DNA of 64,000 bases from a virus. Taxonomy: Duplodnaviria > Caudoviricetes. Below the pieces are notes generated by a model. That model had not been told where the DNA came from and made no database searches. It saw nothing but the letters and a program-made list of their open reading frames with translations. This document shows positions 36,217 through 64,000 of this stretch, in pieces. The DNA is taken from the IMG/VR virus record IMGVR_UViG_3300020576_004326, positions 1-64,000 of that record; one strand, written 5' to 3'. The translations under genes and the position numbers were made by a program. Numbering within the stretch: the stretch's first letter is position 1; each line of letters opens with the position of its first letter.

Positions 36217-36282
36217 CTCAGCGGTACGAGCGGCTCGTTTACACCGAGAAGGTCGCAGGTTCGATTCCTGCCGGGGCCACCA
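36207..36282 (+). tRNA. trnV: tRNA-Val (anticodon TAC)
   Basis: Acceptor stem ggccccg/cggggcc, D-arm gctc/gagc, loop ttTACac, GGTTCGATTCC T-loop, encoded CCA; 76 nt. Confidence 0.95.
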
Positions 36283-39302: not shown

Positions 39303-40403
39303 ATGATGCTCCCGCACGAGTGCACCCCTCCCTACATCCTGTACCTGGGAGACTCGACCACGCTCGACGAGATAAAGACGGCGACCGGCCTGCTCAAGTG
39401 GCGCCCCGAGTGGTGCACGGGGTTCTACGCGGAACCCGAGTGCACCGTGACGCACGCGATGGGCAACCTCCCCCGCATATCTACCGTGCAGGAAGGCGTC
39501 ATACTGGGAGCCAAGACGTTCGTGATCTGCTGCGTCGCGCGCGGCAGCAAGCTATCGCCGGCGTGGTACGAGACGGTGGCCAACTGGATCAGTTCGGGCA
39601 GCGGCATCGACGTAGCCACCGGAACGCACGAGCGCATCAAGTCTCACCCCCAGTACGCCAAGCTGGCGGAGGCATCGGGCTGTCGCCTCGTAGACTATCG
39701 CCACCACGACACGCAGTACCCCCTGTGTCGCGGCGAGAAGCGCTCGGGTCTGCGCCTGCTCACTATCGGTCACGACGGCTGCGTCGGTAAGAAGTACACG
39801 TCGCTCGCCCTGTGTGCCGAGCTAAAGCGGCGCGGCATCGCTCACAAGTTCGCACCCACCGGACAGACGGGCGCGCTTATCGCAGGCGCCGAAGACAGGT
39901 CGATCGTGATCGACTCTACCGAGGCCGACTTCGCCTCGGGCGCCGCGGCGTGGCTCACGCCTCCCGCCGAAGACGCGGGCTTCTGGTACGTGATCGAGGG
40001 GCAGGCCAGCCTCTTCCACCCCGGCTGGGCTCCCCCGAGCCTCGCTCTACTCTACGGCAGCCAGCCCGACGCCCTCGTGTACTGCATCGACCCGACCCGT
40101 CGGCTGCAGCTAGGCACCGCCCTCCGAGTCGTCCCGATGGCTGCAGAGATCGACCTGAACCTGCAGCTGGCGCGGCGCGTCAATCGCGGCGTCGCTCCCT
40201 ACGCCGTGAGCGTGAACATGGCGAACGTGCCTCCCGAAGACTACGACCTCGTCATGGCCGGGGTGCGCGACGAGGTATCGCAGCTCAGCTACGACGTGTC
40301 GGTGATCGACCCCAATCGACCCGACACGTTCTACCACCTCATCGAGCGCATGGTGAGCCGCTCGGTAGAGGTGCGAACGCGCGCGGCGGAGGTGCCCGAA
40401 TAA
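39303..40403 (+). CDS. DUF1611 / DgcN-like protein, paralogue 2
   Basis: PYILYLGD...KTATG, ATGTH, IGHDGCVGKKYT, FAPTGQTG, EGQAS, GSQPD. Confidence 0.85.
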   Translation: MMLPHECTPPYILYLGDSTTLDEIKTATGLLKWRPEWCTGFYAEPECTVTHAMGNLPRISTVQEGVILGAKTFVICCVARGSKLSPAWYETVANWISSGSGIDVATGTHERIKSHPQYAKLAEASGCRLVDYRHHDTQYPLCRGEKRSGLRLLTIGHDGCVGKKYTSLALCAELKRRGIAHKFAPTGQTGALIAGAEDRSIVIDSTEADFASGAAAWLTPPAEDAGFWYVIEGQASLFHPGWAPPSLALLYGSQPDALVYCIDPTRRLQLGTALRVVPMAAEIDLNLQLARRVNRGVAPYAVSVNMANVPPEDYDLVMAGVRDEVSQLSYDVSVIDPNRPDTFYHLIERMVSRSVEVRTRAAEVPE

Positions 40404-41374
40404 TGGCGTCGATGGACCTCAAGCTGTGCAAGTCTTCGCTCTCTGTCGGAGCCAAGATACGCGACCTGTTCGAGCGCCACATGCGCGAGAAGCTGGGCAA
40501 GAAGAGCAAGCGCGTCGCTCTCTTGCTGTCGGGGGGCATCGACTCGGCGCTGGCGGGCATAGCGGCCACGCGCGCGGGTCACGAGGTGCACGCGTACACC
40601 TTCCGAATGGCAGGGCAGCCCGGCTTCGACGACAAGTGGGCCGAGCACACCGCCAAGGTGATGGGGTGGAAGTGGGAGCTGATAGAGCTTCCCACCGACC
40701 TCTACGCCGTGGCGGGCCTCGTGCCGATGATGCACGACGAGTTCGCCTGTCGCCTCAAGCGCAACTACGAGTGCCTCTGGCCTCTCCTGTTCTCCTACGC
40801 GAGCATCGAAGAGAAGTTCGTCGTGTCGGGCCTCGCGGCAGACAACCACTACATGCCGAACCGCAAAGCCCAGAAGCTGGGGGCGCGCGACGACAAGGGC
40901 GTATTCGACGAGCTCCGATCGGGGTCGTTCGCCAAGCTGCACGAGGGCGGCATAGACGCGCTGTCGCGAGACTACAACCCCGCTAACCTGTGGATGAACC
41001 TGCAGGCCGAGCGGCACTTCGGGAAGGTAGGAGTAAATCCCTACCTAGAGCGCGAGCTGTACGACCTGCTCCTCCCGTTCGACTGGAACCAGCTGCACAA
41101 GCCTCGGCAGAAGCACCACCTCGTGGGTGCGTACCCCGAGGTGATGAAGTACGTGGGGCACCGTAATCATCGTAACTACCAAAACGCCGGGATAGACACG
41201 CACTTCGAGAAGCTCCTCGAGACGCCTCTCAACATCAAGAACTCGCGCCGCGCGCTAGACATGTACGCGTCGTGGCGACACCACCCCAAAGATTTCGCGA
41301 AGGCGCTGTCTAAGGTGCGCGACAAGTACGCGGCGAAGGCCGAGAAGCTGCTTACGCGCAAGAGCAAGAGGTAG
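40403..41374 (+). CDS. Asparagine-synthetase-like ATP-dependent amide ligase (synthetase domain only)
   Basis: PP-loop LLSGGIDS, VVSGLAAD, NPYL; no Ntn glutaminase domain; TAATG coupling to paralogue 2. Confidence 0.75.
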   Translation: MASMDLKLCKSSLSVGAKIRDLFERHMREKLGKKSKRVALLLSGGIDSALAGIAATRAGHEVHAYTFRMAGQPGFDDKWAEHTAKVMGWKWELIELPTDLYAVAGLVPMMHDEFACRLKRNYECLWPLLFSYASIEEKFVVSGLAADNHYMPNRKAQKLGARDDKGVFDELRSGSFAKLHEGGIDALSRDYNPANLWMNLQAERHFGKVGVNPYLERELYDLLLPFDWNQLHKPRQKHHLVGAYPEVMKYVGHRNHRNYQNAGIDTHFEKLLETPLNIKNSRRALDMYASWRHHPKDFAKALSKVRDKYAAKAEKLLTRKSKR

Positions 41375-43037: not shown

Positions 43038-43045
43038 GAGCAGCC

Positions 43046-49480: not shown

Positions 49481-49491
49481 GGGCAGCTCCT

Positions 49492-50322
49492 ATGAGTAAG
49501 AAGATAGCAGGAGTTTACCTTATCAAGTGGGCCCAAAGCGATAGTTTCTACATAGGGTCTTCAATTAACGTCGTCCGTAGAATAAGCGAACACTTTCACG
49601 CGCTGCGCCGAGGAAAGCACTATAATATCGCGCTAACTGCCGCCTACAGAAAGTATGGCGACACCATGACGTACTACGTCTTACAGACTATAACCAGCAG
49701 AAGGGCTTACCATAAGCCGTACGTTCTGCACGATCTAGAACAAGATTGGATAGACGACCTCGATCCAAAATACAATAGAACTAATGAAGTTAGAGCCCCA
49801 TCCAGAGACCCTAGAGTTGCGCTGCGAATCTCTAGATCGCTTAAGGGTCGCCCGCTATCTACCGAAGCGCGAGAGAACTTGAGCAGAGCCTTAGTAGGGC
49901 GTAAATTATCTGCAGATCACAAGAGAGCCATATCTAGAGGTCTTATCGGAAGAGAAATGTCTGCAGATACTCGCAGATCTATAGGAAATGCCAATAGAGG
50001 AAGAACAGTATTTCCAGAGCACCGCGATAAGATTAGAGCAGCGCTTACTGGCTACAAGCATACGCCAGAAGCGCGAGCAAATATGAGCTCGGGCCAACGC
50101 GGTAAAGTGCTGTCCCCGGAGCACGTAGAGAAGATACGCAAACGAAATACAGGATCTTACAAACTGTCTTCAGATCAATTGGTCAAGGCACGATCTCTAT
50201 TCGCAAGATTGAGAGGGTCTGAGCGCAGCAGACTTTTACGGATAGCAGACGACTTCGGCGTTTCTTTTTCTACCGCAAGAAACGTAGTTCGCATGGTAGG
50301 ACCATACAGGAGAATAAAATGA
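49492..50322 (+). mobile_element. Free-standing GIY-YIG homing endonuclease with about six NUMOD3-like repeats
   Basis: GVYLI...FYIGSS...RRISEH; repeated G..LS.E.R..IS units; AT-rich. Confidence 0.88.
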
Positions 50323-51137
50323 AAATTAAAATAAGCCCTAAGACCATGGCGGACTTGAAAGCCGCGAGTTACAACCCTAGGTCGATAACGGATCGACAGC
50401 TAGACGCTATGGTCAAGTCGTACATGAAGTTCGGCGATCTTTCCGGTATTACGATGAACGTCCGTACCGGGAATCTAGTCGGCGGGCACCAGCGCACGAC
50501 GATCTTCAAGAAGCACGGCAAGAAGTCGAGCATCGTCAAGAAGCCCTACTCCGACAAGTACGGCACCGTCAGCGTCGGCTACGTAGACGTGGTCGTGAAG
50601 AGAGACGGCAACTCGTCGGTGATCCGCATCCCCTACCGCGAGGTGAAGTGGGACGCAGACACGGAGAAGGCGGCGAACATCGCGGCCAACGCGGCGGGCG
50701 GCGACTTCGACCTCGTCAAGCTCGGCAAGGTGCTCAAGGAGCTGGAGGACCGCAAGTTCTCTATCGAAGACGTCCCGATCGACCCGTGGATGCACCGCAA
50801 GTCTATCGCCATGTTCGAGTCGAACAATCGCCGCGCCGCCGAGGGCGTAGACCAGGACGGCGAGTTCGCCGTAATTAGCCCTGACGCCGTCGAGGCGAGC
50901 CTGGAGCACTGCTGCCCCAAGTGCGGGCACCGCTGGTCGGGCTCTACGAAGGTGTCGAAGGCGTCGGCGGGCAGCGGCCGCACGCGCGCCAAGGGGCCCG
51001 CGAAGCGCGTCTCGGTCGACAAAGACGCGAAGGTCGTCGGCAAGAAGGGCAAGGTCAGCAAGACGAAGTCGCAGGCCAAGCCCGACCCGAAGCGCAAGCC
51101 GAAGGCTGCGACCAAGGGTAAGAAGGGCAAGAAGTGA
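50319..51137 (+). CDS. ParB/Srx-like domain protein with Zn ribbon and Lys-rich tail
   Basis: LK.ASYNPR.I, NLVGGHQR, NIAAN...GDFD, CPKCGHRW. Confidence 0.78.
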   Translation: MKIKISPKTMADLKAASYNPRSITDRQLDAMVKSYMKFGDLSGITMNVRTGNLVGGHQRTTIFKKHGKKSSIVKKPYSDKYGTVSVGYVDVVVKRDGNSSVIRIPYREVKWDADTEKAANIAANAAGGDFDLVKLGKVLKELEDRKFSIEDVPIDPWMHRKSIAMFESNNRRAAEGVDQDGEFAVISPDAVEASLEHCCPKCGHRWSGSTKVSKASAGSGRTRAKGPAKRVSVDKDAKVVGKKGKVSKTKSQAKPDPKRKPKAATKGKKGKK

Positions 51138-51875: not shown

Positions 51876-52106
51876 ATGGCGAGAGACGACTTGTACGAGG
51901 CCCGGTATGGGGTTCGCCGCTGCTGGTGCGGGAGGAAAGATTGCTCCCGCTGGTGCGTAGGTGACTTCGTGCAGGGCACCATCGAGGCCTCGCTTACCGA
52001 GCGCCAGGCCAGAGCCGTCTCCTTCGTTCTCAACGCCATGTCGGGCGACGACCCCTGCGCGCTCACCGTCACCACCGCAGGCACCACCAAGACCACCACC
52101 CTGTAG
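51876..52106 (+). CDS. Small hypothetical protein
   Basis: ggagg RBS; CWC...C..WC. Confidence 0.45.
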   Translation: MARDDLYEARYGVRRCWCGRKDCSRWCVGDFVQGTIEASLTERQARAVSFVLNAMSGDDPCALTVTTAGTTKTTTL

Positions 52107-52119
52107 GAGAGAGCGAGCG

Positions 52120-52608
52120 ATGTACAAGCCCAAGGCGATATTCACCGTCGGCGCCCCGCGTAGCGGAAAGACTACGTGGGCCAGGCTGTACCAGCAGACT
52201 CACGAGCGCACCGCCCTCCTGTCGCTCGACGATCTGCGTGTAACGCTCTGCGGCTCCAAGCGCGCCTACCACGACGAAGTGGGCGACGATCCCGGACACC
52301 CGCTGCGGACTGCACTCAACGAGCTGCACGATCACGCGCTATCGTACCTCCTCGCGCGCTGCATGACCGTAGTCGTGCACAACACGCACCTCACGCGCTG
52401 GAACATAGATCGGAGCCTGTGCACGAGCTACGTGCTGCGCGCGGAGACCGAGTTCGTAGTGTTCGACAGGACGATAGAAGAACTTCGCAGTCGCAACGCG
52501 TCTTGCCCTCCAGAAGACGCCGTACCCGACGGTGTGCTGATGAGAATGCACGACCAGATGCAGAGCGCCGACGCGTGGTGGAGGAGCGTTACTCACCGCA
52601 CAGCGTAG
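52120..52608 (+). CDS. Polynucleotide-kinase-like P-loop protein (AAA_33)
   Basis: VGAPRSGKTTWAR, SLDDLR, VHNTHL, RNA.....VP..V...M. Confidence 0.78.
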   Translation: MYKPKAIFTVGAPRSGKTTWARLYQQTHERTALLSLDDLRVTLCGSKRAYHDEVGDDPGHPLRTALNELHDHALSYLLARCMTVVVHNTHLTRWNIDRSLCTSYVLRAETEFVVFDRTIEELRSRNASCPPEDAVPDGVLMRMHDQMQSADAWWRSVTHRTA

Positions 52609-52633
52609 CGCAGCAGACAGAGAGGCGAGAGCC

Positions 52634-53047
52634 GTGCGCTACCGAGAAGATACGAACCGCGTTCAGAAGCGCCTCGCCGCTGGCCAGAAGTGCCCGTACT
52701 GCAAGCGTGAGATGCGGCTAGAGCCCGACCCTGCGTGCGAGCTGTCGCCTACGATCGACCACGTCGTGACGCAGGGCCGCGGAGGAAAGAGCAACCCCGA
52801 GAACCTGCTGTGGTCGTGCAGGCGCTGCAACAACCTTCGCGGTTCTGTTCCCTACGATGTGTTCGTCGCGTTCTCGCGCTACGTGCTGATACAGTTCCCC
52901 AACCACCCCGCCGCCTTCCTCCGAAACGCCCTCCGAGAGTTCGTCTACTGGCTGGCGTTCGCCGCGCTGGGAAAGAAGGACGGCGTGAACCACGCGGTGC
53001 GCATGAGCCTGCTGCAGCTGGCCGGAGACATGGAGAACGCGAAGTGA
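52634..53047 (+). CDS. HNH endonuclease domain protein
   Basis: CPYC...TIDHVV..GRGG.S...NL..SCRRCNN.RG; genome-typical GC. Confidence 0.82.
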   Translation: MRYREDTNRVQKRLAAGQKCPYCKREMRLEPDPACELSPTIDHVVTQGRGGKSNPENLLWSCRRCNNLRGSVPYDVFVAFSRYVLIQFPNHPAAFLRNALREFVYWLAFAALGKKDGVNHAVRMSLLQLAGDMENAK

Positions 53048-53049
53048 GT

Positions 53050-53367
53050 ATGCAGACGACGCTCGACACCACACCTGAGATAGAGAGGCTGTTCGCCGAC
53101 TGGCGGAGAGCAGTCGAGAGAGTGACAGAGAACGTATCGGCGCAGAACGTCACTCTTCTGTGCATTCCTCCCAAGTACGCGAAGCACAGTCGCGGGTGGA
53201 GGATACACGGTATGACGAAGCGCCAGTGGCGCCGCGTCCGACACCTCGCTACTATGCATACGTTCGACGACGTGTACCTCGAGAGGTGTCCCGAGTTCAC
53301 AGAGTCGGGTATGGTAAACGTCGAGTTCTCCTGCGAGAATATGACGTCACGGCGTGTGCGGCCGTGA
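53050..53367 (+). CDS. Hypothetical protein
   Basis: 105 aa, packed. Confidence 0.45.
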   Translation: MQTTLDTTPEIERLFADWRRAVERVTENVSAQNVTLLCIPPKYAKHSRGWRIHGMTKRQWRRVRHLATMHTFDDVYLERCPEFTESGMVNVEFSCENMTSRRVRP

Positions 53368-54005
53368 AGAACACCGCCGTACTTGCGGGACTAGACATAG
53401 ACTTCGCTGCGGTAGAGCGCGTCGCACAATCTTGGAGAACCGCTATGTGGTTGACGATCGGTGAACTGGTAACGAAATTCGAGAAGGCAGCGGAGCCCGA
53501 CCGAGAGCTAGACGTGCTGGCACACGTCGCGCTGTTCGGCGGGTTCGACTTCAACCTGGGTCAGGCCAGCGGCAACGTGGGAGGTATCAAATACTCGACG
53601 CGCGGCCTGAACCTCAAGCAGTTCGTAGAGAAGCACCCCAAGCTGTTTATCGAGGGAGCCATCTTCTACAACGTACCCCAGCTGTCGTCTTCGCTAGAGG
53701 CGTGCCACAAGCTACAGACGGCTATGTTCCCCTCGTGCATGGTGAGCGGACACTTCGCTCCGACGGGCGGAATATCCCGAGCGCAGCTGGTTCACGTTCG
53801 CGGCGTAGCGATCGGTCGAGAGTGCGCCGCAAGATCGCCCACTCTCGCGTGGGCAGCAGCTATCCTAGCGGCGGCCTCGATAGACGAGAAGGCTGCCCAC
53901 GACAGGTTCAAGGAGAAGATCGATGAAGCGGAGAACGCCCTCAAGGCTCACGGTGGATCGCAGGTCGTTCTTGGCGGGAACCGAGGCGTCGACCCTACTG
54001 TCTAG
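53364..54005 (+). CDS. Hypothetical protein
   Basis: GTGA overlap with the upstream stop. Confidence 0.5.
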   Translation: MKNTAVLAGLDIDFAAVERVAQSWRTAMWLTIGELVTKFEKAAEPDRELDVLAHVALFGGFDFNLGQASGNVGGIKYSTRGLNLKQFVEKHPKLFIEGAIFYNVPQLSSSLEACHKLQTAMFPSCMVSGHFAPTGGISRAQLVHVRGVAIGRECAARSPTLAWAAAILAAASIDEKAAHDRFKEKIDEAENALKAHGGSQVVLGGNRGVDPTV

Positions 54006-54207
54006 CGTAGCTCTTCCCGCTACAGCTATACGGCCCGGCCCCCTCAGCGTAACGCTGCCGTCATCAGCTGCAGTACCGCTGGGTACGTCGTTCACGATCA
54101 AGTCGCTGGCGGACTCTACGTTCGTGCTATACGCAGGAGACAGAAAGATCGAGCTGGGCAAGGCTCAGGCGATCACCGTCCAGAACAGAGAAGGAAACTG
54201 GAGATGA
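53923..54207 (+). CDS. Hypothetical protein
   Basis: 94 aa; overlaps upstream ORF, start uncertain. Confidence 0.35.
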   Translation: MKRRTPSRLTVDRRSFLAGTEASTLLSSVALPATAIRPGPLSVTLPSSAAVPLGTSFTIKSLADSTFVLYAGDRKIELGKAQAITVQNREGNWR

Positions 54208-55070
54208 CCGAAGACGCTAAGGGCCTGAGCTGCGCGGCTCGTGCCGAACTCCTTAGAGAGACTGTCGATGCCTACCTCGACGCCCACGATCTAGGCACCA
54301 GCCTCTCACTGAGAATAGACGAATGCTCTTTCGGTCGAGAGGCACTTGCCGCGTGCCTCGAAGAGGCCAAGAGTGCGGGAGACCTCTTCGGCGTCGCCAT
54401 CGCGACCGAGCTGCTTTCCCTCCCCGACGATGTTCTGACGGTGGCCTCCGACTGCGGCCTCAGCGCTGCACTTGATCGCTGGGTGGAGGCTACGGAGCCG
54501 CAATCTGCGTCGCCGAGTTTCTCTCTACCGCCGACTAACGGTCTCACGTGGCTTCCGCCCATCCTGCGCTATCACGAGATAGTAGACTCGTTCGAGAGGG
54601 AACCCCTTTTCGTAGGCGACGAGCTGATAGTAGGCAAGGGGCTGGAGGTAAGCGAGATAATACACCCCGCCGACGACCAGCGCCACCCTGCGTTTGCAAT
54701 CATAGATTGGTTCGCAGTCGGTCTGTCGAAGTTCGCAGTTCTCCGTCAGCCTGTCGGCATCGTGCTCCCCTTGCCGAGGAACCATCCCGGAGTAGCCGTC
54801 CAAGAATTCTGCGCGACGATTCGATACGAGTCGAACCCTATGCTCGGAAAATATCGTCATAAGTTTGCGGCCGTGTACGGGATACTACAGGAGGCTGTTC
54901 TACCCTCGAAGTCTACGGTGGCGACCAAGCCCGTGGCTTTCCTGACTCACCTCGGGTGGTACGACGGCTACGTGCAGTCGATAGGCTGGGACGGAGAGAC
55001 TAACACGTTCACCGTCATCGGCGGAGTACGCAAGCGCGCCAAGACAGAACAGCTGGAGACCGCGCGGTGA
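54204..55070 (+). CDS. Hypothetical protein
   Basis: 288 aa, ATGA overlap. Confidence 0.55.
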   Translation: MTEDAKGLSCAARAELLRETVDAYLDAHDLGTSLSLRIDECSFGREALAACLEEAKSAGDLFGVAIATELLSLPDDVLTVASDCGLSAALDRWVEATEPQSASPSFSLPPTNGLTWLPPILRYHEIVDSFEREPLFVGDELIVGKGLEVSEIIHPADDQRHPAFAIIDWFAVGLSKFAVLRQPVGIVLPLPRNHPGVAVQEFCATIRYESNPMLGKYRHKFAAVYGILQEAVLPSKSTVATKPVAFLTHLGWYDGYVQSIGWDGETNTFTVIGGVRKRAKTEQLETAR

Positions 55071-57295
55071 AGCGATATACTGCACTAACGATACCCTCGA
55101 TACGCAAGATCAACAAGCTCCCGAAGGCGCTGGTCGGAGCCAGCCTCTTCGCCGGCGGGGGAGGCGCGTCTACGGGAATGAAGCTGGCTGGCATCGACGT
55201 GCGCTACGCCAACGAATTTATCCCCGGCGCCATCGCAACTTACCGCGCCAACGCCAGCAAGTCGACGTTCGTAGACGAGCGCGACATACGCACCGTGCAG
55301 CCGTCCGAGATACTGAAGCACTGCCGCGTGGCGAAGGGCGAACTCGACTACCTCGACGCTTCACCCCCCTGCTTCCCGGCAGGAACTCTCGTTCGCACCA
55401 ACACGGGGCTAAAGCCTATACAGCTTGTGGAGTGCGGAGACTTAGTTCTTACCCACAAGGCGAGGTTTCGCCGTGTAAATAATACTATGTCTCGGCTATA
55501 CGCCGGCGACATGGTAAAGATTGCCTGCGTAGGAACTCAAGATACATCTTCGACTCCTGAGCACCCCTTCTTCGTGAAGAAGCGATTGTCACCTACGGCA
55601 CTGGCAGACCCCGCGTGGATAGAAGCTAAGGATGTCTGCAAAGGAGACTACGTCGGCATCGTAGTCGATAAGAAGGCAGAGGTACCCGCATACGACGGAT
55701 ACGTCGAACGATCTGGCTTTGATCGTGTCACTCGGCAGTTTACGACTGCGACGACTATAAATACTCTGCCTCTGTCAAACCCTAATTTTTGGTACCTCAT
55801 AGGGAGGTGGCTAGGTGATGGTTGGCTTCGATACACCGAAGACTACGCTTCCAAGTTCATAAATCAAGAACTGAAACGCCGAAAGAACCGTTATGGGTTC
55901 ATAATTTGCTGCAAGGACCCAAGCCTAGACGGCGGTATTGAGCTGAAGCAGATCACCAAAAGATTCGATGCTCTAGGGTGGAACTACGGCGTTAAGCGTT
56001 ACGGTAGCGTAGTTCGCGTAGTTCTTAAGGGACAAGGCGCAGGTGCGCAGAGCGCGGCTTCTGGAATTACTTCTCCTAAAGAGTTGGTTCTGTGGTGTCT
56101 CCGATTTGGCAGAGGAGCTGCAAACAAGCGTCTTACGGGAGACATTCTTAATCTACCGATACCCCTGTTGAAGGAGGTGGTACGCGGCTACCTTGCCGCT
56201 GACGGGCGCAAAAGGGGCAAAGGGATTTGGGGCTTTAGAGGAACAAGTAACCAACTCATACAGGGGATAGCGTTCGCTGTTGCCAAGATAAGGAAAGTTC
56301 CTACCAACAGAGTCGCGCGTGTTAGGCCTACGAGAAGACCTTCGGTAATAGAAGGTCGGGTAGTATCGTCTAATCCTCAGTGGTACACTGTAACCTGCCC
56401 CAAGATTTCTCGTATGAAAGCATTCGAGTACGACTCGAAATCTCGCATATTATGGGTCCGCGTTCGTGCCGTTTCCTCATCGCCCGTTGCAACTACGGTG
56501 TATAACATATCTGTAGGCGGAGACGATACTTACACCGCAAACACTCTAGCTGTTCACAACTGCAAGATGTATAGTGGAGCCGCGAAGTTCTCGCGCGTAG
56601 GTAAGCGTGCAGACGCACCGGTGCTGTACAGCGAGAACGTGAAGCAGCGCGTAGACGACCTGTTCGACGAGTTTCTGCGCATCCTCAAGGGCGTGAGGCC
56701 CAAGGTATTCGCCACCGAGAACGTGACGGGCCTCGCCGAGGGAGTGAGCAAGGGCTTCTTCCTCGAGATACTGCAGAAGATGAAAGACTGCGGCTACGCA
56801 GTCGAGGCGCGCATGGTGGACGCCTCGAAGCTCGGCGTACCCCAGCGGCGCATACGCATCGTGTTCGTAGGCGTCCGCACCGACGTGTCTAAGGCAGTCT
56901 GCGGGCCCGTGTTCCCCAAGCCGGGCAAGAAGGTGCTGGCGCTGCGCGACGTGATCCCCGACGCCGCGTTCGTGCAGGAGGGAGCGCGCGGGTGGGGCGA
57001 CGCGCGGCGCCCCGCGCCCACCATCGTCGCGGGCGGGCACTCGTTCAACGAGTACTCGCAGCTCTCGGCGGGCGGCTACTACAAAGACGACTCGGGAGAC
57101 GTGATCAAGTTCACCATCCCGCAGCTGATCAAGATATTCGGGTACCCCGAAGACTACGTGCTCACGGGCGACTTCAAGATGCAGTGGGAACGGCTCGGTC
57201 GATCGCACGTCCCGCTGGCCGTCTACGCCATCGCGTCTACCATCAAGGACGAGGTGCTCGACCCCTATAATCGAATGAAGAGGAAGAAGAAATGA
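55067..57295 (+). CDS. C5-cytosine methyltransferase-fold enzyme with intein; predicted carboxymethyltransferase
   Basis: Motif I SLFAGGGG, IV SPP|C, VI ENV, VIII QRRIR; motif X is LGRS instead of GNS. Confidence 0.85.
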   Translation: MKRYTALTIPSIRKINKLPKALVGASLFAGGGGASTGMKLAGIDVRYANEFIPGAIATYRANASKSTFVDERDIRTVQPSEILKHCRVAKGELDYLDASPPCFPAGTLVRTNTGLKPIQLVECGDLVLTHKARFRRVNNTMSRLYAGDMVKIACVGTQDTSSTPEHPFFVKKRLSPTALADPAWIEAKDVCKGDYVGIVVDKKAEVPAYDGYVERSGFDRVTRQFTTATTINTLPLSNPNFWYLIGRWLGDGWLRYTEDYASKFINQELKRRKNRYGFIICCKDPSLDGGIELKQITKRFDALGWNYGVKRYGSVVRVVLKGQGAGAQSAASGITSPKELVLWCLRFGRGAANKRLTGDILNLPIPLLKEVVRGYLAADGRKRGKGIWGFRGTSNQLIQGIAFAVAKIRKVPTNRVARVRPTRRPSVIEGRVVSSNPQWYTVTCPKISRMKAFEYDSKSRILWVRVRAVSSSPVATTVYNISVGGDDTYTANTLAVHNCKMYSGAAKFSRVGKRADAPVLYSENVKQRVDDLFDEFLRILKGVRPKVFATENVTGLAEGVSKGFFLEILQKMKDCGYAVEARMVDASKLGVPQRRIRIVFVGVRTDVSKAVCGPVFPKPGKKVLALRDVIPDAAFVQEGARGWGDARRPAPTIVAGGHSFNEYSQLSAGGYYKDDSGDVIKFTIPQLIKIFGYPEDYVLTGDFKMQWERLGRSHVPLAVYAIASTIKDEVLDPYNRMKRKKK
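55370..56560 (+). mobile_element. Intein (397 aa) with LAGLIDADG endonuclease, inserted before the catalytic Cys
   Basis: CFPAGTLV, STPEHPF, IGRWLGDG, VRGYLAADG, LAVHN|C; lower GC. Confidence 0.93.
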
Positions 57296-57477
57296 TCGTC
57301 GTCAGACTACTGATCATCTGGGTGATCGTCGGCGTCGTCGTAGTCGCCGGCATCAGCGCCACGCATCCCACCCTGCAGTTCAACGGCCCCGGTCAGGCAG
57401 CCAAGGCTGTGATGTTCTGGCCCATTACGGTGTACGCCGTAATCGCGGGCGACTTAGTCCGCAACCCCGTAGACTGA
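57292..57477 (+). CDS. Small membrane protein
   Basis: Two hydrophobic segments; ATGA overlap. Confidence 0.55.
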   Translation: MIVVRLLIIWVIVGVVVVAGISATHPTLQFNGPGQAAKAVMFWPITVYAVIAGDLVRNPVD

Positions 57478-57487
57478 GAGGTGCACC

Positions 57488-57862
57488 GTGAAGTTCTTAT
57501 CGTGCGCGCTTCCTCCCGTTCGCATCAAGGCCGACTGGACGTACCAGAACGAGCCCGTCGCCGTGAGCGTAGTGCAGGGGCTAAGGCGCTCTCGCGTCAA
57601 CCACTACTTCGATGAGGAGGGGTATCCCGCAATAGAGTTCGTGGGGACTGGGGCGAAGTGGGTGTTCGCCGACCTGGCCCAGCGCGAAGCGGCGCTACTC
57701 CTACTCATGCGCGGCTCGGAGCAGCTAACCTCCGAAGACGTCACCTCCGAGGCCACGAAGTGGTCTAAGTTAAACCTAGTAGCTCCTGCGTGCAGTAGCT
57801 CTAGCAAGATGCGCGACTACCGCGCTTCTCCCGTTCCTCTTACTTCGAGGCCAACATGGTAA
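57488..57862 (+). CDS. Hypothetical protein
   Basis: GTG start after gagagg. Confidence 0.5.
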   Translation: MKFLSCALPPVRIKADWTYQNEPVAVSVVQGLRRSRVNHYFDEEGYPAIEFVGTGAKWVFADLAQREAALLLLMRGSEQLTSEDVTSEATKWSKLNLVAPACSSSSKMRDYRASPVPLTSRPTW

Positions 57863-58287
57863 ACACGTGCCCTGCGTGCGGCAAGCAACTCGTGGTGAAC
57901 TCGCAGGCTGGCATCGCGCTGTGCCCCGACTGGCATCACTGGACCAGCAAGCCCACTGCGAAAATCGACGCAGGCGACGACTTGATGATGGCGGAAGCCG
58001 GCACGCTCAGCGCGCGGCTAGCGCTGGAGGCCGACCGCAGCTTCGCGTTCATGCGAGACGCCTGCGCGTTCGCGGGCAAGCCCCCGCAGTCTCTGTTCGC
58101 CGCCATCGCCCTAGCGTTCATCGACTCGCTGGTGCAGCAGTACGAGGGTCGAATGGCCGGCGCGGTACCCGAGGCGGAGAGGCGCGCGTGGATCATGCAG
58201 CAGATCGTTTCTACCACGACTATGGTGGTCGACATGCGCGTAGGCAAGCTCGAAGAGTCTGGTCTACCCAAGGCCACCGTCAACTAG
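57856..58287 (+). CDS. Zn-ribbon hypothetical protein
   Basis: CPAC...CPDWH; gagg RBS. Confidence 0.55.
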   Translation: MVNTCPACGKQLVVNSQAGIALCPDWHHWTSKPTAKIDAGDDLMMAEAGTLSARLALEADRSFAFMRDACAFAGKPPQSLFAAIALAFIDSLVQQYEGRMAGAVPEAERRAWIMQQIVSTTTMVVDMRVGKLEESGLPKATVN

Positions 58288-58297
58288 GAGAAGCGTC

Positions 58298-58633
58298 ATG
58301 GCAGATCGCGTCGCATACGAGTTCGACCGCTACCTCTACGGATCGAAGGTGGCGGAGGGCGTCACGGTGCACCGGGCCGACTCTTTCGAGGAGGCCACCG
58401 TCGTAGCTGCCCGCCTGTGCGGAGGCCAGCGCGGTACCGTACTCGTCCCCCGCTTCGACACGCTGATGCTCCTGTTCACTAAGCGCGTCGGTCCGTACGC
58501 CGCGGTGAAGCCCAAGAAGGGCGACCAGTGGATGCACCCGATCACGGGGACCGTCTACGTGTTCGACGGCGAGAACTACGTGAGTACGAGCGAGAAGCCT
58601 TACGGCACCGACCCCATGGGCGTGCTGAGCTGA
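58298..58633 (+). CDS. Hypothetical protein
   Basis: aggag RBS. Confidence 0.55.
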   Translation: MADRVAYEFDRYLYGSKVAEGVTVHRADSFEEATVVAARLCGGQRGTVLVPRFDTLMLLFTKRVGPYAAVKPKKGDQWMHPITGTVYVFDGENYVSTSEKPYGTDPMGVLS

Positions 58634-59244
58634 TGAGCAAGCGCGCCCTGAACAAGTCGTGGGCCAAGCGGACGGTGGGGTCGGGTCGCAGCAAGCAGTC
58701 TCGCGCCAAGATACTCGACGGCTACGGGTCTCCTCGCGAGTCGTTCGACGCCCTGGTGCGCGACGGCAGAGAAGAGTTCCCGCTACGCATATGGGAGCCG
58801 GCCGCGGGCCGTCACCACATGGTGCGCGCGATGGAGCGCCACGGGCACCGCGTGTACACCAGCGACGTGTACCGCTGGAGCAAGCGCACGCGCACGATCA
58901 TCGACTTCTTCGCGGCGAAGCGCGTACCCAAGAGGCACAGGTGCATCGTCACCAACCCACCTTTCTACCTCGCCCAGCAGTTCGCCCAGCACGCAATGAC
59001 GCTGCTCCCTCCTGGAGGCCGCCTCTACCTGCTGCTGCGCGTTCAGTGGCTAGAGGGAGTAAAGAGGAAGCGAGAGCTGTTCGACGGGTGCCCGCCCAAG
59101 TACGTGTACGTGTTCTCGTATCGCCTTCCCATGATGCACGCGTTCGACCACGCGGGCAAGAAGATGAAGGGCGGCATGATGGCGATGGCGTGGTTCGTGT
59201 TTGTGAAAAATTTTAAGGGGGAGCCCACGATAAGATGGCTCTGA
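58633..59244 (+). CDS. Amino (N6-adenine/N4-cytosine) DNA methyltransferase
   Basis: WEPAAG motif I, IVTNPPF motif IV, AWFVF tail. Confidence 0.82.
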   Translation: MSKRALNKSWAKRTVGSGRSKQSRAKILDGYGSPRESFDALVRDGREEFPLRIWEPAAGRHHMVRAMERHGHRVYTSDVYRWSKRTRTIIDFFAAKRVPKRHRCIVTNPPFYLAQQFAQHAMTLLPPGGRLYLLLRVQWLEGVKRKRELFDGCPPKYVYVFSYRLPMMHAFDHAGKKMKGGMMAMAWFVFVKNFKGEPTIRWL

Positions 59245-59930
59245 AACTAGAAGTAAACACGGGTGCTCGTTTTGGCAGATTGCGAGTAGTGCAAGAGATT
59301 TCCCGGTCTTCCCCTGGTCGCCACTTCCTTTGTCGATGTGACTGTGGCAATAAAACGGTTACAACTCTAGCCCGAATGCGGTCAGGCAAGACTCGGTCTT
59401 GCGGATGCATTCGCTTAGAGACTACACGAGCCTTGGGTAAAAAATATGGAGGCAGTGCTCAAAAGCACGGTCTTGCAGGTACTGCTTTATATACGTGTCA
59501 CAGGTTGATGATGAAACGTTGCTACGATGTAAGTTATCTTCGGTACGATTCTTGGGGAGGACGCGGCATTCGCGTATGCAGAAAGTGGCACGATCTTCGC
59601 GCGTTCGTAGACTGGAATAATTCTCTTCCTAAAGAAGAACGATACCGAACCGGCCTCACCATAGAGAGAAGGGACAACGCGAGAGGATATTCTCCGAATA
59701 ATTGCTATTGGGCAACAAGACGACAGCAGCAACGAAATCGGAGAGGAAATGTTAGGATAATGTACAGAGGGAAGTTGAGCAGCTTTATGTACGTGTACGA
59801 GGACTTGATAGAGCGTAAGCTGGTTCCTAAAAAGTCGGCGGAGAAGATACGGCGTAGGTTGCGCCAGGGATATAAATTATCCGATATAGTCAAGGGGTTC
59901 ACCGGCGAGCCGAAGATTCGGTGGCTGTAG
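59235..59930 (+). mobile_element. HNH homing endonuclease ending in the old 3' end of the upstream MTase
   Basis: WGGRGIRVC...IERRDNARGYSPNNCYW; ends VKGFTGEPKIRWL. Confidence 0.88.
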
Positions 59931-59939
59931 GAGATCGCG

Positions 59940-60146
59940 ATGAAGCACGATGAAGAGCTGCGCGCACGCGTGCGCGCCAAGATCGTAGAGTCTCTGCAGA
60001 AGATGAGAGACGACACGGGCCTATACGTCGGCGGCCCCGCGTCGGGCGAAGTTCGGCCCGACGACGACGAGGTAGTGGTCGACGGCCTAGTCGACCTTCA
60101 AGAACTCGTGAGCGCCGTGATCTCGGCGGTGACCGATAAAGACTAG
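59940..60146 (+). CDS. Small hypothetical protein
   Basis: aggag RBS. Confidence 0.5.
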   Translation: MKHDEELRARVRAKIVESLQKMRDDTGLYVGGPASGEVRPDDDEVVVDGLVDLQELVSAVISAVTDKD

Positions 60147-60153
60147 GTGATCC

Positions 60154-60393
60154 GTGAGCGGGGCGACGTTCATCACGGTACGGCGCAGGGTGGCAGACGT
60201 CAGGTTCTTCGAGAACGACGTGCTCGTTGCCGTGCTGGGCAGAGACAGGCGCGGCCTGCACCGCCTGCACCACACGCGGGAGTCGTGCCCCGACCTCATC
60301 GCTCAGGTAGAGAAGTTCGTCAAAGACTACACCGACTCTGCCGGTTTCTTTACGGCCCGCGAGGGCGTCCACGTGATTAGGATGAGAGAATGA
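60154..60393 (+). CDS. Small hypothetical protein
   Basis: 79 aa, stop overlaps the next ATG. Confidence 0.5.
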   Translation: MSGATFITVRRRVADVRFFENDVLVAVLGRDRRGLHRLHHTRESCPDLIAQVEKFVKDYTDSAGFFTAREGVHVIRMRE

Positions 60394-60539
60394 AGCTCTA
60401 CACCGCGCTAGACATACCGACGATGGCCGAGATAAACGCGAAGCGCAAGAAGTTCGTCGGCGCCAGCCTGTTCTCGGGCTGCGGAGGAGCCTCGGTCGGC
60501 ATGAAGCTGGCCGGCATCGACGTGAGGTGCGTCGGATGA
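60390..60539 (+). pseudogene. Stranded original 5' end of the second C5-MTase-fold gene
   Basis: MKLYTALDIPTMAEINAKRKKFVGASLFSGCGGASVGMKLAGIDVR versus MKLYTALDIPTMREINALPKTFVAASLFSGCGGSSVGIKLAGGDVR at 60995. Confidence 0.9.
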
Positions 60540-60994
60540 TCTATAGATTACCTGAGATACGAAACAAAGGCGATCATCCATTATATCGCACATGGTACGG
60601 AATGCTGCGACGGTGCAGAGATCACCCTCGCTACATGGGTAGAGTAAGCGTGTGCAAATCCTGGGCCCACCCCGAGAAGGGTTTCTCTGCCTTTGTTACA
60701 TGGGCTCGAAAGGGTTATCGCCCGGGGTTAGAGCTGGATCGTAGGAATAACGACGGCGACTACTCTCCCGATAATTGTCGGTGGGTTACGCACAAGATTA
60801 ACGCCCAAAACAGAGGTGATATAATTTGGGTAGAAGTCGGCGGAAGTCGACAAGAGCTGTTTCGTCTATGGGAAAACAGCTCACGCGTAGTATCCTACAA
60901 CACAGTAAAACTGCGCTATTACAGGGGCTGGGATGTAAAGCGTGCTCTGTCCACTCCCGCAAAACACCCAGGTGCTCCTAAGAGGGTTTCGAAC
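60536..60994 (+). mobile_element. HNH homing endonuclease, in frame (no stop) with the downstream MTase-fold gene
   Basis: LYRTWYGM..RC...LDRRNNDGDYSPDNCRW; ATG overlaps the relic's TGA. Confidence 0.85.
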
Positions 60995-62008
60995 ATGAAG
61001 CTATACACGGCTCTCGATATTCCTACAATGCGCGAGATAAATGCGTTACCTAAAACCTTCGTTGCAGCGAGTTTGTTCTCTGGATGTGGAGGCTCATCCG
61101 TTGGTATTAAATTAGCTGGCGGAGACGTGCGCTACGCGTCAGAGTTCGTGCCCATCGCGGCCGACACGTACGCGGCGAACGCACCCGGCACGTACGTAGA
61201 CCGCAGAGACATTCGCGAAGTGAAGCCCGAGTTCGTACTCAAGAAGTGCCGCGTGGCGAAGGGCGAACTCGACTACCTAGACGGCTCCCCGCCGTGCAAG
61301 ATTTTCTCGAAGGCTTCGCTGCACACGAAGGGCAAGCGAGACGAGACGAACGTCGTGCTGTACTCGGAGGGCATCAAGCAGCGCGTAGACGACCTGTTCT
61401 TCCAGTTCGCCCGCCTGCTCAAGGGCACGCAGCCCAAAGTCTTCGTCGCCGAGAACGTCGAGGGCCTGACGGCTCAGGCCAACCGCCCCTACCTCAACGA
61501 GATATTCTCGTCGCTCCGTAAGTGCGGGTACGAGGTCGAGGCGCGCGTGCTCGACGCCTCCAAGCTGGGCGTGCCGCAGGCTCGCAAGCGCCTCATCTTC
61601 GTGGGCGTCCGCAGAGACTTGGTGAAGCGCGGGTTCAAGCCCGCGTTCCCGAAGCCCCTCAACCGCTACATCACCGTGCAAGACGTCGTGCCCCACGCCG
61701 TTAAGATGAAGTTCGGCGGCGGTCGCGGCTACATGTCTGCGGCTCAGCCCAGCCAGACGATCACGGCGTCCGACGCCACGACCTACGAGACTGCCGACTT
61801 CTCGTGCGGAGCGTACATCGAGCTGCCCGACGGGACGCGCCGCAAGTACAAGATCAGCGAGGCGAAGCGCGTCTTCGGCATGCCAGAAGACTTCAAGCTG
61901 CTGGGCGACTACGAGCAGCGCTTCGAGCGCCTCGGTCGCATACACGTGCCCCTATCCGTCTACTACGTCGCCAGCGCCCTGCGCGAGAACGTGCTGAGCA
62001 AGCTGTGA
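60995..62008 (+). CDS. C5-cytosine methyltransferase-fold enzyme; predicted carboxymethyltransferase
   Basis: SLFSGCGG, SPPC, ENV, QARKR; motif X is LGRI; own RBS aagaggg. Confidence 0.85.
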   Translation: MKLYTALDIPTMREINALPKTFVAASLFSGCGGSSVGIKLAGGDVRYASEFVPIAADTYAANAPGTYVDRRDIREVKPEFVLKKCRVAKGELDYLDGSPPCKIFSKASLHTKGKRDETNVVLYSEGIKQRVDDLFFQFARLLKGTQPKVFVAENVEGLTAQANRPYLNEIFSSLRKCGYEVEARVLDASKLGVPQARKRLIFVGVRRDLVKRGFKPAFPKPLNRYITVQDVVPHAVKMKFGGGRGYMSAAQPSQTITASDATTYETADFSCGAYIELPDGTRRKYKISEAKRVFGMPEDFKLLGDYEQRFERLGRIHVPLSVYYVASALRENVLSKL

Positions 62009-62175
62009 AGAAGGCGAGCAAGACGTTCTACGCCTACTCCGAATACGGAAGATGGGTCGTGTCGGTGTACCACGACGGCGCGCTGTACATGCGCTGCGAC
62101 CACTCTAGTCGGCAGCTGTGGGAGAAGCAGGTGCTAGAGCTGCTGGCGGCTGGCTACGAGGAGGAAGAGCGATGA
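62005..62175 (+). CDS. Small hypothetical protein
   Basis: GTGA overlap. Confidence 0.45.
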   Translation: MKKASKTFYAYSEYGRWVVSVYHDGALYMRCDHSSRQLWEKQVLELLAAGYEEEER

Positions 62176-62639
62176 CGCTGTACCAGCGATGCATCTCGGG
62201 TGAGTGGTACGACGGGCCGAGCCTACTCGCTTCTATGCTGGCCTTCGTAGACGCGTACGGCATACGCGTAACGGGGTTTCGCGGAACCACGATGACGATC
62301 GGGATACCGATCCCGCGACTAGTAAGCAGTAAAGTATCCATAGACCTATTCGTTCCTCAACGGCTGCTCGAAGACTTCTACTACGCCAACGGGAGCGCAG
62401 TTCTAGGCAGGCGCCCTGACATAGAAGAGCTGTCGAAGTTCGTGTCGTTCGCCAACGACGCCTTCACCGCCAATCTCGTCAACGACCACCTACGACAGCG
62501 GGAGCAGACGCGTGTGATGAACGGTGGACCGTCTCTGCGCAGCTCTCTGCTATTCGCTTACACTGGAGCCTACTCAGAAGTGCTGAGCGAACCCATGTTC
62601 GAACTGCACGAACTCGAACTGGCGGAGCTTACGCGATGA
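62172..62639 (+). CDS. Hypothetical protein
   Basis: gagga RBS; lies between the MTase-fold gene and cmoA. Confidence 0.55.
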   Translation: MTLYQRCISGEWYDGPSLLASMLAFVDAYGIRVTGFRGTTMTIGIPIPRLVSSKVSIDLFVPQRLLEDFYYANGSAVLGRRPDIEELSKFVSFANDAFTANLVNDHLRQREQTRVMNGGPSLRSSLLFAYTGAYSEVLSEPMFELHELELAELTR

Positions 62640-62731
62640 ACAGGAGGTCGCCCTTGAAAATTTTTCTGGCGGAGGTGCCGTAGTAAATTCATAGTAGTCT
62701 CCAGCATAGAATCGAAAAAGGAGTAGCTATC

Positions 62732-63532
62732 ATGAGCAAATTGGTACAAGACGAAAAGCCGCAGAATACGAACGGCGATAGCCACATAGCAGATCCTAAC
62801 AGAAAATGGGAGTTCGATAAAGACGTCACAGACGCATTTTCCATGATGATATCCTCGTCAATACCCGACTGCCGGAACATGCGCAAGTGGGTGCAGTCGC
62901 TGGCCTCGAATCACCTGCGCACCCGGGTAGACCCAGAACACATGCGCGGCGTCACCTACGCGCGCACTGGGAGCGCGCTAGACATCGGCGCCAGCCGCGG
63001 AGACGCCGTTGCCGACCTCGTCGCCGACTACCCGATGTGCCGGTTCCACCTCGTCGAGATAAGCAAGCCGATGGTGACCGTGCTGCACCAGCGCTTCGCC
63101 GACTCGAACAACGTGAGGGTCGTTGAGGGCGACATGTCGGAGGAACCCACGCTCGTCAACTCGTCGCGCCGAGGGCACGACCTGGCGATGTCGATCCTGA
63201 CGCTCATGTTCGTCCCGATCGAGTGCCGCCAGCGCGTGGTCCAGGCCGTGTACGACTCGCTGCTGCCGGGTGGCATGTTCATCGTGGTGGAGAAGACTAT
63301 GGGCGAGACTGTCGTGGGGCAGGAGCTCCTCGTCGCCCAGTACCACGCGTTCAAGATGGCCTCGGGATACACGGCAGAGAACGTCGAGCGCAAGCGCCTC
63401 TCGCTCAAGGGGTCGCTCGTTCCTACGAAGCCTTCGTGGGTGGAAGAGATGCTGCGAGACGCGGGCTTCGTTCACGTAACGCGCTTCTGGCAGGCCCTGC
63501 AGTTCGTAGGGTGGGTTGCTTTCAAGCAGTAA
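62732..63532 (+). CDS. cmoA: CmoA-like carboxy-S-adenosylmethionine synthase
   Basis: WEFDKDV...F..MI..SIP, LDIGASRG, ILTLMF, LLPGG.FIVVEK, FK..SGY...V..KR.SL, AGF: the CmoA pattern along the whole length. Confidence 0.85.
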   Translation: MSKLVQDEKPQNTNGDSHIADPNRKWEFDKDVTDAFSMMISSSIPDCRNMRKWVQSLASNHLRTRVDPEHMRGVTYARTGSALDIGASRGDAVADLVADYPMCRFHLVEISKPMVTVLHQRFADSNNVRVVEGDMSEEPTLVNSSRRGHDLAMSILTLMFVPIECRQRVVQAVYDSLLPGGMFIVVEKTMGETVVGQELLVAQYHAFKMASGYTAENVERKRLSLKGSLVPTKPSWVEEMLRDAGFVHVTRFWQALQFVGWVAFKQ

Positions 63533-63543
63533 GGAGAAACGAC

Positions 63544-63831
63544 ATGAACTTCGGACAAGCTCAAGAGGTACTAGAGAGTGGCGGCCGCGTCGCTCGCGCC
63601 GGCTGGAACGGCAAGGGCATGTGGCTCTCTCGCGTAAGCGAGAACTGGAGCGGGTCGCTGAGGTGCAGAGAGAATCTGCCGCCCAACTTCGCGGGGTACC
63701 TCCCGTTCTACGTGATGTACACGGCCGACGGCAAGCTCGTGCCGTGGCTCGCCAGCCAGACCGACCTGGCCGCCACCGACTGGGTGGTGCTAGTCGACGG
63801 AACAGTCGCGCACGAGGCAGTCTCGTCATGA
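63544..63831 (+). CDS. DUF2829 protein (Tad2-like)
   Basis: MNFGQA...GGRVARAGWNGKGMWL...MYTADGKLVPWLASQTDL.A.DW. Confidence 0.8.
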   Translation: MNFGQAQEVLESGGRVARAGWNGKGMWLSRVSENWSGSLRCRENLPPNFAGYLPFYVMYTADGKLVPWLASQTDLAATDWVVLVDGTVAHEAVSS

Positions 63832-64000
63832 GTGCCGCCGCAGAAACGGCGCAGCCGTCCCTCGACGATACCCACCTCGTAACGAAGCTCAGCGAGGCGG
63901 CTCTGCTGATGAAACCCGTGGTAGAAGCGGCCGGCGTAGCCGAGACGCCGCTGTTCTCTCCGTGGAGCCGGATGGTGCACGGCACGTCGCCGCTAGTAAC
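63828..64000 (+). CDS. Partial ORF running off the window
   Basis: ATGA overlap, gagg RBS, open to the end of the window. Confidence 0.45.
   Translation, partial: MSAAAETAQPSLDDTHLVTKLSEAALLMKPVVEAAGVAETPLFSPWSRMVHGTSPLV

Follow-up and report, generated by a model that had tools for sequence, protein, structure and literature searches.

The stretch of DNA analysed here (64 kb, hereafter the window) comprises the first 64 kb of the 86.9-kb IMG/VR virus record IMGVR_UViG_3300020576_004326 (CheckV completeness 33%) and is a portion of a PaBG/Alexandravirus-like jumbo phage genome. This phage is predicted, with a probability of about 0.75, to encode a full but scattered CmoA-CmoX-CmoY pathway for the hypermodification of its DNA. 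The reading is based on homology, conserved residues, predicted fold, gene content and synteny, from which the enzymatic activities, targets, splicing and final base were inferred. Most likely, the phage makes carboxy-S-adenosylmethionine (Cx-SAM) and carboxymethylates its own cytosines with one or two CmoX transferases, and the carboxylate is then probably turned into an amide by a CmoY homologue. Among cultured phages, the nearest relatives of the transferase genes are found in jumbo phages about 260 kb in size, namely PaBG (Pseudomonas), Yoloswag (Erwinia) and the Alexandravirus phages, which infect Erwinia and Dickeya. The Cmo system of DNA modification is already known (published December 2025), and the window genome is a further member; what is unusual in this member is the presence of two transferase copies, both invaded by selfish genetic elements.

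Published system and proposed pathway

In the Synechococcus cyanophage S-B43, CmoA makes Cx-SAM, CmoX, a C5-methyltransferase homologue, writes 5-carboxymethylcytosine (5cxmC) at GC sites, and CmoY, an asparagine-synthetase-like ligase, converts 5cxmC into its glycine amide, the form present in virion DNA (Yang et al., Nat Commun, Dec 2025, PMC12783734). In the structure of the S-B43 transferase (SpCmoX, 8YF3), Arg350 is found in place of Asn304 of M.HhaI and touches the cofactor carboxylate; the wild-type enzyme uses Cx-SAM exclusively and the R350N variant is inactive (PMC12783734). In the same study 5,615 candidate CmoX were catalogued from IMG/VR and other sources, with SPPC and R350 as criteria. 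That paper makes no mention of DUF1611, inteins or PaBG, and the residues that form the CmoY glycine pocket are not listed in its supplement. The engineered M.MpeI N374K variant is a carboxymethyltransferase (Wang and Kohli 2021, as cited in PMC12783734).

In the proposed pathway, the CmoA homologue would form Cx-SAM from S-adenosylmethionine (SAM) and host prephenate. Two sister transferases, CmoX1 and CmoX2, would then place the carboxymethyl group on C5 of cytosine in the phage DNA. The mechanism would be the usual Cys addition, and the motif-X Arg would hold the carboxylate of the cofactor. CmoX1 would be active only after its intein splices out, restoring the SPPC catalytic motif, and translation of CmoX2 would probably start at a ribosome-binding site of its own, with an HNH fusion as a possible second product. 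Finally, the CmoY homologue would adenylate the carboxylate of 5cxmC and join an amine to it, and the neighbouring DgcN-like enzymes may tailor the amine or the adduct.

Predicted CmoX transferases

Both transferase reading frames matched Pfam family PF00145, with E-values of 3.8e-33 for the 742-residue frame of CmoX1 and 1e-45 for the 493-residue frame that contains CmoX2; the predicted spliced CmoX1 has 345 amino acids. A preliminary description of this sequence had reported Arg in place of the motif-X Asn in both genes, and the two codons were found exactly at the positions given there (Table 1). Motif X reads ERLGRSH in CmoX1 and ERLGRIH in CmoX2. HMMER paired the CmoX2 Arg with R350 in 8YF3 (SpCmoX) and with the Asn of motif X in M.HaeIII. 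With MAFFT, in a set that also took in SpCmoX (from the S-B43 record), PaBG_00177 and Yoloswag gp43, R315 of spliced CmoX1 and R315 of CmoX2 both fell in the SpCmoX R350 column, and the alignment of these Args with the motif-X Asn was thus confirmed. The preliminary description was also correct in citing a CmoA/CmoX pair with a key Arg in S-B43 (PMC12783734).

All the SpCmoX residues named in PMC12783734 are identical in both paralogues: F25, E47, F48, D69, S95-P-P-C98, R350, the Glu of ENV and the Args of QxRxR. The SPPC of each lies in the S95-C98 columns of SpCmoX, and in CmoX1 this motif is complete only once the intein is removed. The best PDB sequence match of CmoX2 was 8YF3 (E 9.3e-47), followed by M.HaeIII (E 4.6e-17), and the AlphaFold model of its transferase domain (mean predicted local distance difference test, pLDDT, 90.1) gave 8YF3 as best fold match (E 3e-25, template modelling score 0.75), ahead of M.HhaI. 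At the level of sequence, both window transferases possess the SPPC and the R350-equivalent Arg by which CmoX was defined.

Megablast revealed no close DNA relative among cultured phages for positions 52000-64000, so protein-level searches were required. A total of 80 related viral loci was retrieved, yielding 68 distinct transferases with a readable motif X. Arg was present at this position in 64 of the 68, and a CmoA homologue was found in the retrieved locus for 61 of those 64; the four remaining relatives carry Asn (three) or Leu (one), with CmoA in none of their retrieved loci. The one-sided exact probability of this association is about 4e-5 by hand calculation, although the loci are inter-related and it is not a clean test. 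This co-occurrence indicates that the motif-X Arg is not due to chance.

Inside the CmoX clade, three of the loci L080, L085, L090 and L044 show an ordinary GN motif X and one shows GL, none of them with CmoA in the locus; they are natural Arg/Asn switches and possible comparison enzymes.

CmoA homologue

The CmoA-like gene begins 724 nucleotides past the stop of CmoX2, in accordance with the distance of about 0.7 kb noted previously. The two best NCBIfam families of its product were the CmoA equivalogs TIGR00740 (E 2.3e-23; 83 bits against a cut-off of 193) and NF011995 (62 bits against a cut-off of 285), with a full-length match. Scores under the NCBIfam cut-off were likewise obtained for SpCmoA, at 115.6 bits, and for the PaBG homologue, at 130.5 bits; as SpCmoA is an assayed enzyme, a score in this range need not speak against the assignment. 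The best PDB matches were the CmoA structures 4GEK, 1IM8 and 4IWN, and the identity was 37% to the PaBG CmoA homologue and 29% to SpCmoA (tblastn).

In Escherichia coli CmoA, Arg199 forms a salt bridge with the carboxymethyl carboxylate of the cofactor (PMC3663124). Its equivalent is kept in the window protein (ERKRLSL aligned with SQKRSML), together with D62, G64 and S66, while D89 is replaced by Glu, as in the other phage CmoAs compared; Asn132 is kept in none of the phage CmoAs compared, assayed SpCmoA included. With regard to a phage-encoded supply of substrates, chorismate mutase (PF01817) and SAM synthetase (PF02773) are both missing from the 87-kb record, which represents about one third of the genome.

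CmoY-like ligase and associated genes

The CmoY-like gene is the sole Asn_synthase match in the whole record. Its product is 30% identical to SpCmoY (E 1e-35; residues 38-291 against 19-261 of 271), and its PP-loop (SGGxDS), LLSGGIDS, aligns with LLSGGVDS of SpCmoY. It is 28% identical to the PaBG Asn-synthase homologue and 35% (E 1e-52) to gp020 of Erwinia phage pEa_SNUABM_1. Directly upstream lie two DgcN-like paralogues, whose only NCBIfam match was NF041892 (N-acetyltransferase DgcN), with 312 and 274 bits, under the cut-off of 480. The ParB-like gene was not detected by PF02195 (ParB_N) and was found solely via its PaBG homologue. The CmoY-like, DgcN-like and ParB-like genes are located 4-17 kb upstream of the transferases. 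Given a full-length CmoY homologue, which adjoins the two DgcN-like genes, the end product is probably an amide of 5cxmC and not 5cxmC itself. The previous proposal that the phage writes 5cxmC can be retained for the transferase step, given the CmoX residues and the CmoA homologue, but not for the final base, which is probably an amide given the CmoY homologue.

In PaBG, in L016 (a 216-kb contig whose CmoX is the closest to CmoX2, 56%) and in the Erwinia jumbo phages, a ParB-like homologue directly precedes CmoX. The PaBG row consists of ParB-like, CmoX, CmoA, hypothetical and Asn synthase genes (PaBG_00176 to 00180), and L016 has a compact row of ParB-like, CmoX, DUF1611, CmoY-like and CmoA-like genes. 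In pEa_SNUABM_1 the order is CmoA, gp017, DUF1611, gp019 and CmoY; some 15 kb beyond this row come the ParB-like gene and a CmoX that contains an intein. Genes 016, 017 and 018 of Dickeya phage AD1 code for the methyltransferase, DUF1611 and Asn-synthase proteins, a set missing in the related phage JA11. Additionally, when AD1 and Y3 are compared with JA11, the methyltransferase, the Asn synthase and the cytosine methyltransferase are present or absent together. A DgcN-like gene occurs in the Cmo clusters of three phage lineages, namely the window genome, L016 and Alexandravirus. Among cultured phages DUF1611 was found by tblastn in 34 records, all from phages of Erwinia or Dickeya, and those inspected (pEa_SNUABM_1 and AD1) are Alexandravirus; it is missing from PaBG and Yoloswag, and a pattern-based scan of IMG/VR for DUF1611 gave nothing beyond the L016 contig. 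The gene order of the relatives shows that the ParB-like, CmoX, CmoA, CmoY and DUF1611 parts belong together. The coordinates of the features are detailed in Table 1.

Table 1. Position, strand and supporting matches of the features of the modification region (window coordinates).
Feature	Position	Strand	Evidence or remark
CmoX1 precursor gene, 742 amino acids	55067..57295	+	PF00145 in two stretches, plus Intein_splicing and Hint_2
CmoX1 motif-X Arg codon, CGA	57200..57202	+	column of SpCmoX R350
Open reading frame containing CmoX2, 493 amino acids	60527-62008	+	PF00145
CmoX2 transferase proper, 337 amino acids	60995..62008	+	best PDB match 8YF3; own ribosome-binding site
CmoX2 motif-X Arg codon, CGC	61937..61939	+	column of SpCmoX R350
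CmoA-like carboxy-SAM synthase homologue, 266 amino acids	62732..63532	+	TIGR00740; CmoA PDB structures
CmoY-like PP-loop amide ligase homologue, 323 amino acids, no glutaminase domain	40403..41374	+	PF00733
Two DgcN-like (DUF1611) paralogues	38151-39290 and 39303-40403	+	PF07755, PF17396
ParB-like gene	50319..51137	+	43% identity to PaBG_00176
Class-1 intein with LAGLIDADG endonuclease domain, 397 amino acids	55370..56560	+	residues 102-498 of the 742-residue frame
HNH homing-endonuclease gene, without stop codon	60536..60994	+	phrog_3377 HNH endonuclease, E 5e-34
Orphan CmoX 5' fragment, 49 codons	60390..60539	+	tblastn match, translation
Small N6-adenine-type DNA methyltransferase	58633..59244	+	phrog_799, E 6.7e-49; EPAAG and TNPPF motifs

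Intein in CmoX1

The first transferase gene, previously described as a gene of the C5-methyltransferase fold, proved to be an intein-interrupted precursor, and its length of 742 amino acids is explained by the 397-residue intein. It is inserted immediately ahead of the Cys of SPPC, and a single residue would thus act as +1 nucleophile of splicing and as catalytic nucleophile of the transferase. The intein starts with CFPAGT, has TPEH as block B and ends in VHN followed by Cys. Cys1, TxxH, HN and the +1 Cys, the sequence hallmarks of a class-1 intein, are all intact. TIGR01443 (intein C-terminal region) gave 20.1 bits against a cut-off of 15.6, and LAGLIDADG-like motifs were recognized in LGDGW and LAADGR. 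Removal of the intein joins the exteins as DASPP-CKMYSG, gapless against DGSPPCKIFS of CmoX2 and against intein-less homologues. G+C content at third codon positions (GC3) is 0.51 in the intein and 0.78-0.86 in the exteins, and this low value suggests that the intein is a recent arrival.

An intein occupies the identical CmoX site in Yoloswag gp43 and in the Alexandravirus CmoX. These inteins are only about 23-30% identical to that of the window, and the endonuclease motifs of the Yoloswag intein appear degenerate. Inteins that are themselves related to it also occur in many phages, within genes that bear the annotation cytosine methyltransferase; the carriers include E. coli jumbo phages, a Mannheimia phage and Pseudomonas phage Lana. 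Among the papers searched for inteins in cytosine methyltransferases, none was found that describes an intein at the CmoX catalytic Cys.

In L016, downstream of the Cmo cluster and after one open reading frame of 147 amino acids, there is a 491-residue open reading frame with an intein splicing domain (14046-15521), followed by a sigma-70-like gene.

HNH invasion of CmoX2

The second transferase gene had likewise been described as a gene of the C5-methyltransferase fold; an HNH endonuclease is fused in frame at its 5' end. With the intein and the HNH invasion overlooked, both gene models of the preliminary description were incomplete. The HNH gene forms the first 156 residues of the 493-residue frame and reads into CmoX2 with no stop until 62008. 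CmoX2 has its own start, ATG at 60995, with an AGAGGG ribosome-binding site 8 nucleotides upstream. Upstream of the HNH gene stands an orphan CmoX 5' fragment, the first 46 codons of which show 83% protein identity to the start of CmoX2 and whose stop codon (TGA) overlaps the HNH start codon (ATG). Its GC3 is 0.89, like that of the resident genes. In CmoX2, GC3 is 0.44 in codons 1-46, which are AT-rich and recoded, and 0.89 in the remainder; the value for the HNH gene is 0.50. We read this arrangement as an insertion of the HNH element after codon 46, which would have brought a recoded 5' end along.

A second HNH gene (59235-59930, phrog_374) overlaps the 3' end of the N6-adenine-type methyltransferase gene, which is located between the two CmoX genes; no link of that methyltransferase to the Cmo pathway is implied. 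The methyltransferase and the second HNH gene both end in GEPxIRWL (59199-59244 and 59885-59930), and the tail copy of the methyltransferase is the AT-richer. The second HNH gene thus seems to have inserted near the methyltransferase 3' end and to have provided it with a recoded tail, which mirrors the situation at the 5' end of CmoX2. Taken together, the selfish elements (55370-56560, 59235-59930 and 60536-61132) have a GC3 of 0.44-0.51 against 0.78-0.89 in resident genes. Judged by this low GC3, the intein, the two HNH genes and the recoded codons 1-46 of CmoX2 are probably recent imports.

Comparison of the two paralogues

CmoX1 and CmoX2 are 52% identical. A quick maximum-likelihood tree (74 sequences) placed them as sisters (Shimodaira-Hasegawa-like approximate likelihood ratio test 98) within the PaBG/L016/Yoloswag clade, both on long branches. 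Identity between them is 58.5% in motifs I-VIII, and falls to 35% in the variable region and 46% in the C-terminal part. When the variable region is compared with that of PaBG, identity is 51% for CmoX2 and 31% for CmoX1. Conservation was scored against 32 relatives, which provided 55 invariant and 46 near-invariant positions; each paralogue retains 51 of the invariant ones. The near-invariant losses of CmoX1 are mostly conservative changes. Both paralogues read GR-x-His-Val-Pro (57203-57208 and 61940-61945), and relatives mostly GR-A-V-P-P. The residue two places past the motif-X Arg is His in both paralogues and Val in all 32 relatives, most with Pro next, and on this alignment the His is a derived feature common to both.

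It had been suggested that two paralogues imply two sequence contexts. The lower identity of the variable region relative to the catalytic part supports this idea indirectly: the regional values fit a diverged specificity of CmoX1 without proving it, and a partly redundant or decaying copy is the alternative.

Weighing of the alternatives

Several observations weigh against the proposed pathway. The contig covers just about 33% of the genome. The CmoY-like gene is not adjacent to CmoX or CmoA and lies 14 kb upstream of CmoX1, adjoining dCTP-deaminase-like, dNMP-kinase-like and thymidylate-synthase-like genes; with these neighbours and at this distance it could serve a different nucleotide pathway. 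The CmoA-like protein is divergent, the most so of the three phage CmoAs compared (83 bits against 193), and it alone has Cys at the position of E. coli Tyr39, where PaBG and S-B43 keep Tyr. On the side of the transferases, CmoX1 is on the longer branch (1.44, against 0.87 for CmoX2) and keeps 26 of the 46 near-invariant positions, compared with 36 of 46 in CmoX2.

The location of the ligase is compatible with a reading in which the end product is plain 5cxmC and the CmoY-like and DgcN-like genes act in a separate pathway, such as a nucleotide-level or thymidine hypermodification. The ligase module is 14-22 kb from CmoX and CmoA, beside the nucleotide-metabolism-like genes just mentioned, and many CmoX/CmoA loci have no ligase in the retrieved flanks. 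Nevertheless, this reading is considered unlikely, as the homology of the ligase to the assayed SpCmoY is full-length, as L016, PaBG, Alexandravirus and Dickeya phage AD1 all have a homologue of it in or beside their CmoA or CmoX cluster, and as the methyltransferase, Asn synthase and cytosine methyltransferase show joint presence and absence in AD1 and Y3 versus JA11.

The branch length and the losses of CmoX1, on the other hand, would suit a phage with one working transferase only, CmoX1 decaying behind its intein or CmoX2 being impaired by the HNH gene, so that the duplication would be a by-product of homing elements and not a second specificity. Low-GC3 mobile elements are present in both genes, and a second CmoX copy was found in no other sampled locus. 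We find this improbable as well: both copies keep nearly all invariant positions (see above) and all catalytic and cofactor residues, the splicing residues of the intein are intact, and CmoX2 has a ribosome-binding site of its own.

Ordinary 5-methylcytosine methyltransferases accompanied by an unrelated SAM-dependent methyltransferase in place of CmoA, as the bare Pfam/NCBIfam label (DNA_methylase/dcm) and the CmoA match under the curated cut-off might suggest, are very improbable in view of the Arg for motif-X Asn in both enzymes, with which SpCmoX refuses SAM (PMC12783734), of its tight co-occurrence with CmoA, which is missing beside the Asn-bearing relatives, and of the conserved Arg199 equivalent.

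The CmoA-CmoX-CmoY pathway is therefore preferred. As a tentative extension of it, which we hold to be possible but rather doubtful, the DgcN-like and CmoY-like proteins might build or acylate a side chain beyond the glycine amide, giving a cytosine base that has not been described, with the two paralogues writing in two contexts.

Comparison with known systems

The window shares with S-B43 the same three enzyme families, and SPPC, the R350-equivalent Arg and the named cofactor and cytosine contacts are all kept, at an identity to SpCmoX of 39% for CmoX2 and 36% for CmoX1. The two phages differ in that S-B43 has one CmoX, whereas the window has two, one with an intein at the catalytic Cys and the other with an in-frame HNH gene; in that the window genes are spread over about 25 kb and those of S-B43 are side by side; and in the variable region, shorter in the window than in SpCmoX. 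The window also has two DgcN-like genes beside the ligase, a family not mentioned in PMC12783734.

Among cultured phages, PaBG and Yoloswag come closest. CmoX2 shares 49.5% identity with PaBG_00177, its variable region (51%) being conserved to the same degree, and homologues of the PaBG ParB-like, CmoA and ligase genes are all in the window (identities given above and in Table 1). In contrast to the window, CmoX is present once in PaBG, without interruption and as part of a compact cluster, and DUF1611 is missing. The PaBG cluster is known from annotation only; among the papers searched, none treats it as a Cmo system, and nothing specific was found in them on DNA modification in PaBG.

The Alexandravirus phages pEa_SNUABM_1 and AD1 share with the window, as does Yoloswag, the insertion of an intein before the SPPC Cys of CmoX. 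Their layout, a cluster of CmoA-x-DUF1611-x-CmoY with ParB-CmoX about 15 kb away, resembles the scattered layout of the window; those phages have one CmoX and one DUF1611 gene, while the window has two of each.

The engineered M.MpeI N374K has the same basis as the window enzymes: with a basic residue in place of the motif-X Asn, the C5-methyltransferase fold can use Cx-SAM (PMC12783734). There, the residue is an engineered Lys in an enzyme acting at CpG; here, it is a natural Arg in a phage clade with its own CmoA.

Significance

The main value of these data lies in annotation, as these genes would be carboxymethyltransferases and not 'dcm' methylases. The DNA of the phage group that includes the cultured PaBG, Yoloswag and the Alexandravirus phages of Erwinia and Dickeya is probably hypermodified, which bears on restriction resistance and on the sequencing and cloning of DNA from this group. 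The naturally diverged CmoX pair offers a handle for mapping the determinants of target specificity, and the intein on the catalytic Cys, where one residue would serve as nucleophile for both splicing and catalysis, offers an experimental one. The recurrence of DgcN-like genes beside the ligase points to amide chemistry beyond the published glycine adduct.

Neighbouring genes and other observations

Downstream of the CmoY-like gene are a dCTP-deaminase-like gene (PF22769) and a gene for a 390-residue protein with weak dNMP-kinase/AAA_18 matches (42474-44493), which may mark a second, nucleotide-level modification route. A thymidylate-synthase-like gene (region 45210-47399) matches profile positions 1-154 of 266 only, and is followed by an I-TevI-like GIY-YIG endonuclease gene (46041-46829); it may be split, truncated or interrupted by an intron that escaped detection. 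Another endonuclease gene, of the GIY-YIG/NUMOD3 type (49096-50322), is directly upstream of the ParB-like gene, and the whole modification region is crowded with homing elements. No group I intron was detected by Rfam at the gathering threshold in 36-64 kb, so the HNH and GIY-YIG genes look free-standing.

The 288-residue open reading frame directly upstream of CmoX1 has no Pfam, PHROG or NCBIfam match; it was considered as a second ParB-like gene and rejected, as it shows no similarity to any sequence compared. A 369-residue open reading frame (63516-64625, past the window end) overlaps the CmoA stop; it has no Pfam match, NCBIfam match or solved structural relative, and its sole match is PHROG 19425 'phosphohydrolase'. 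The sole tRNA found in the window is a tRNA-Val with anticodon TAC (36207-36282).

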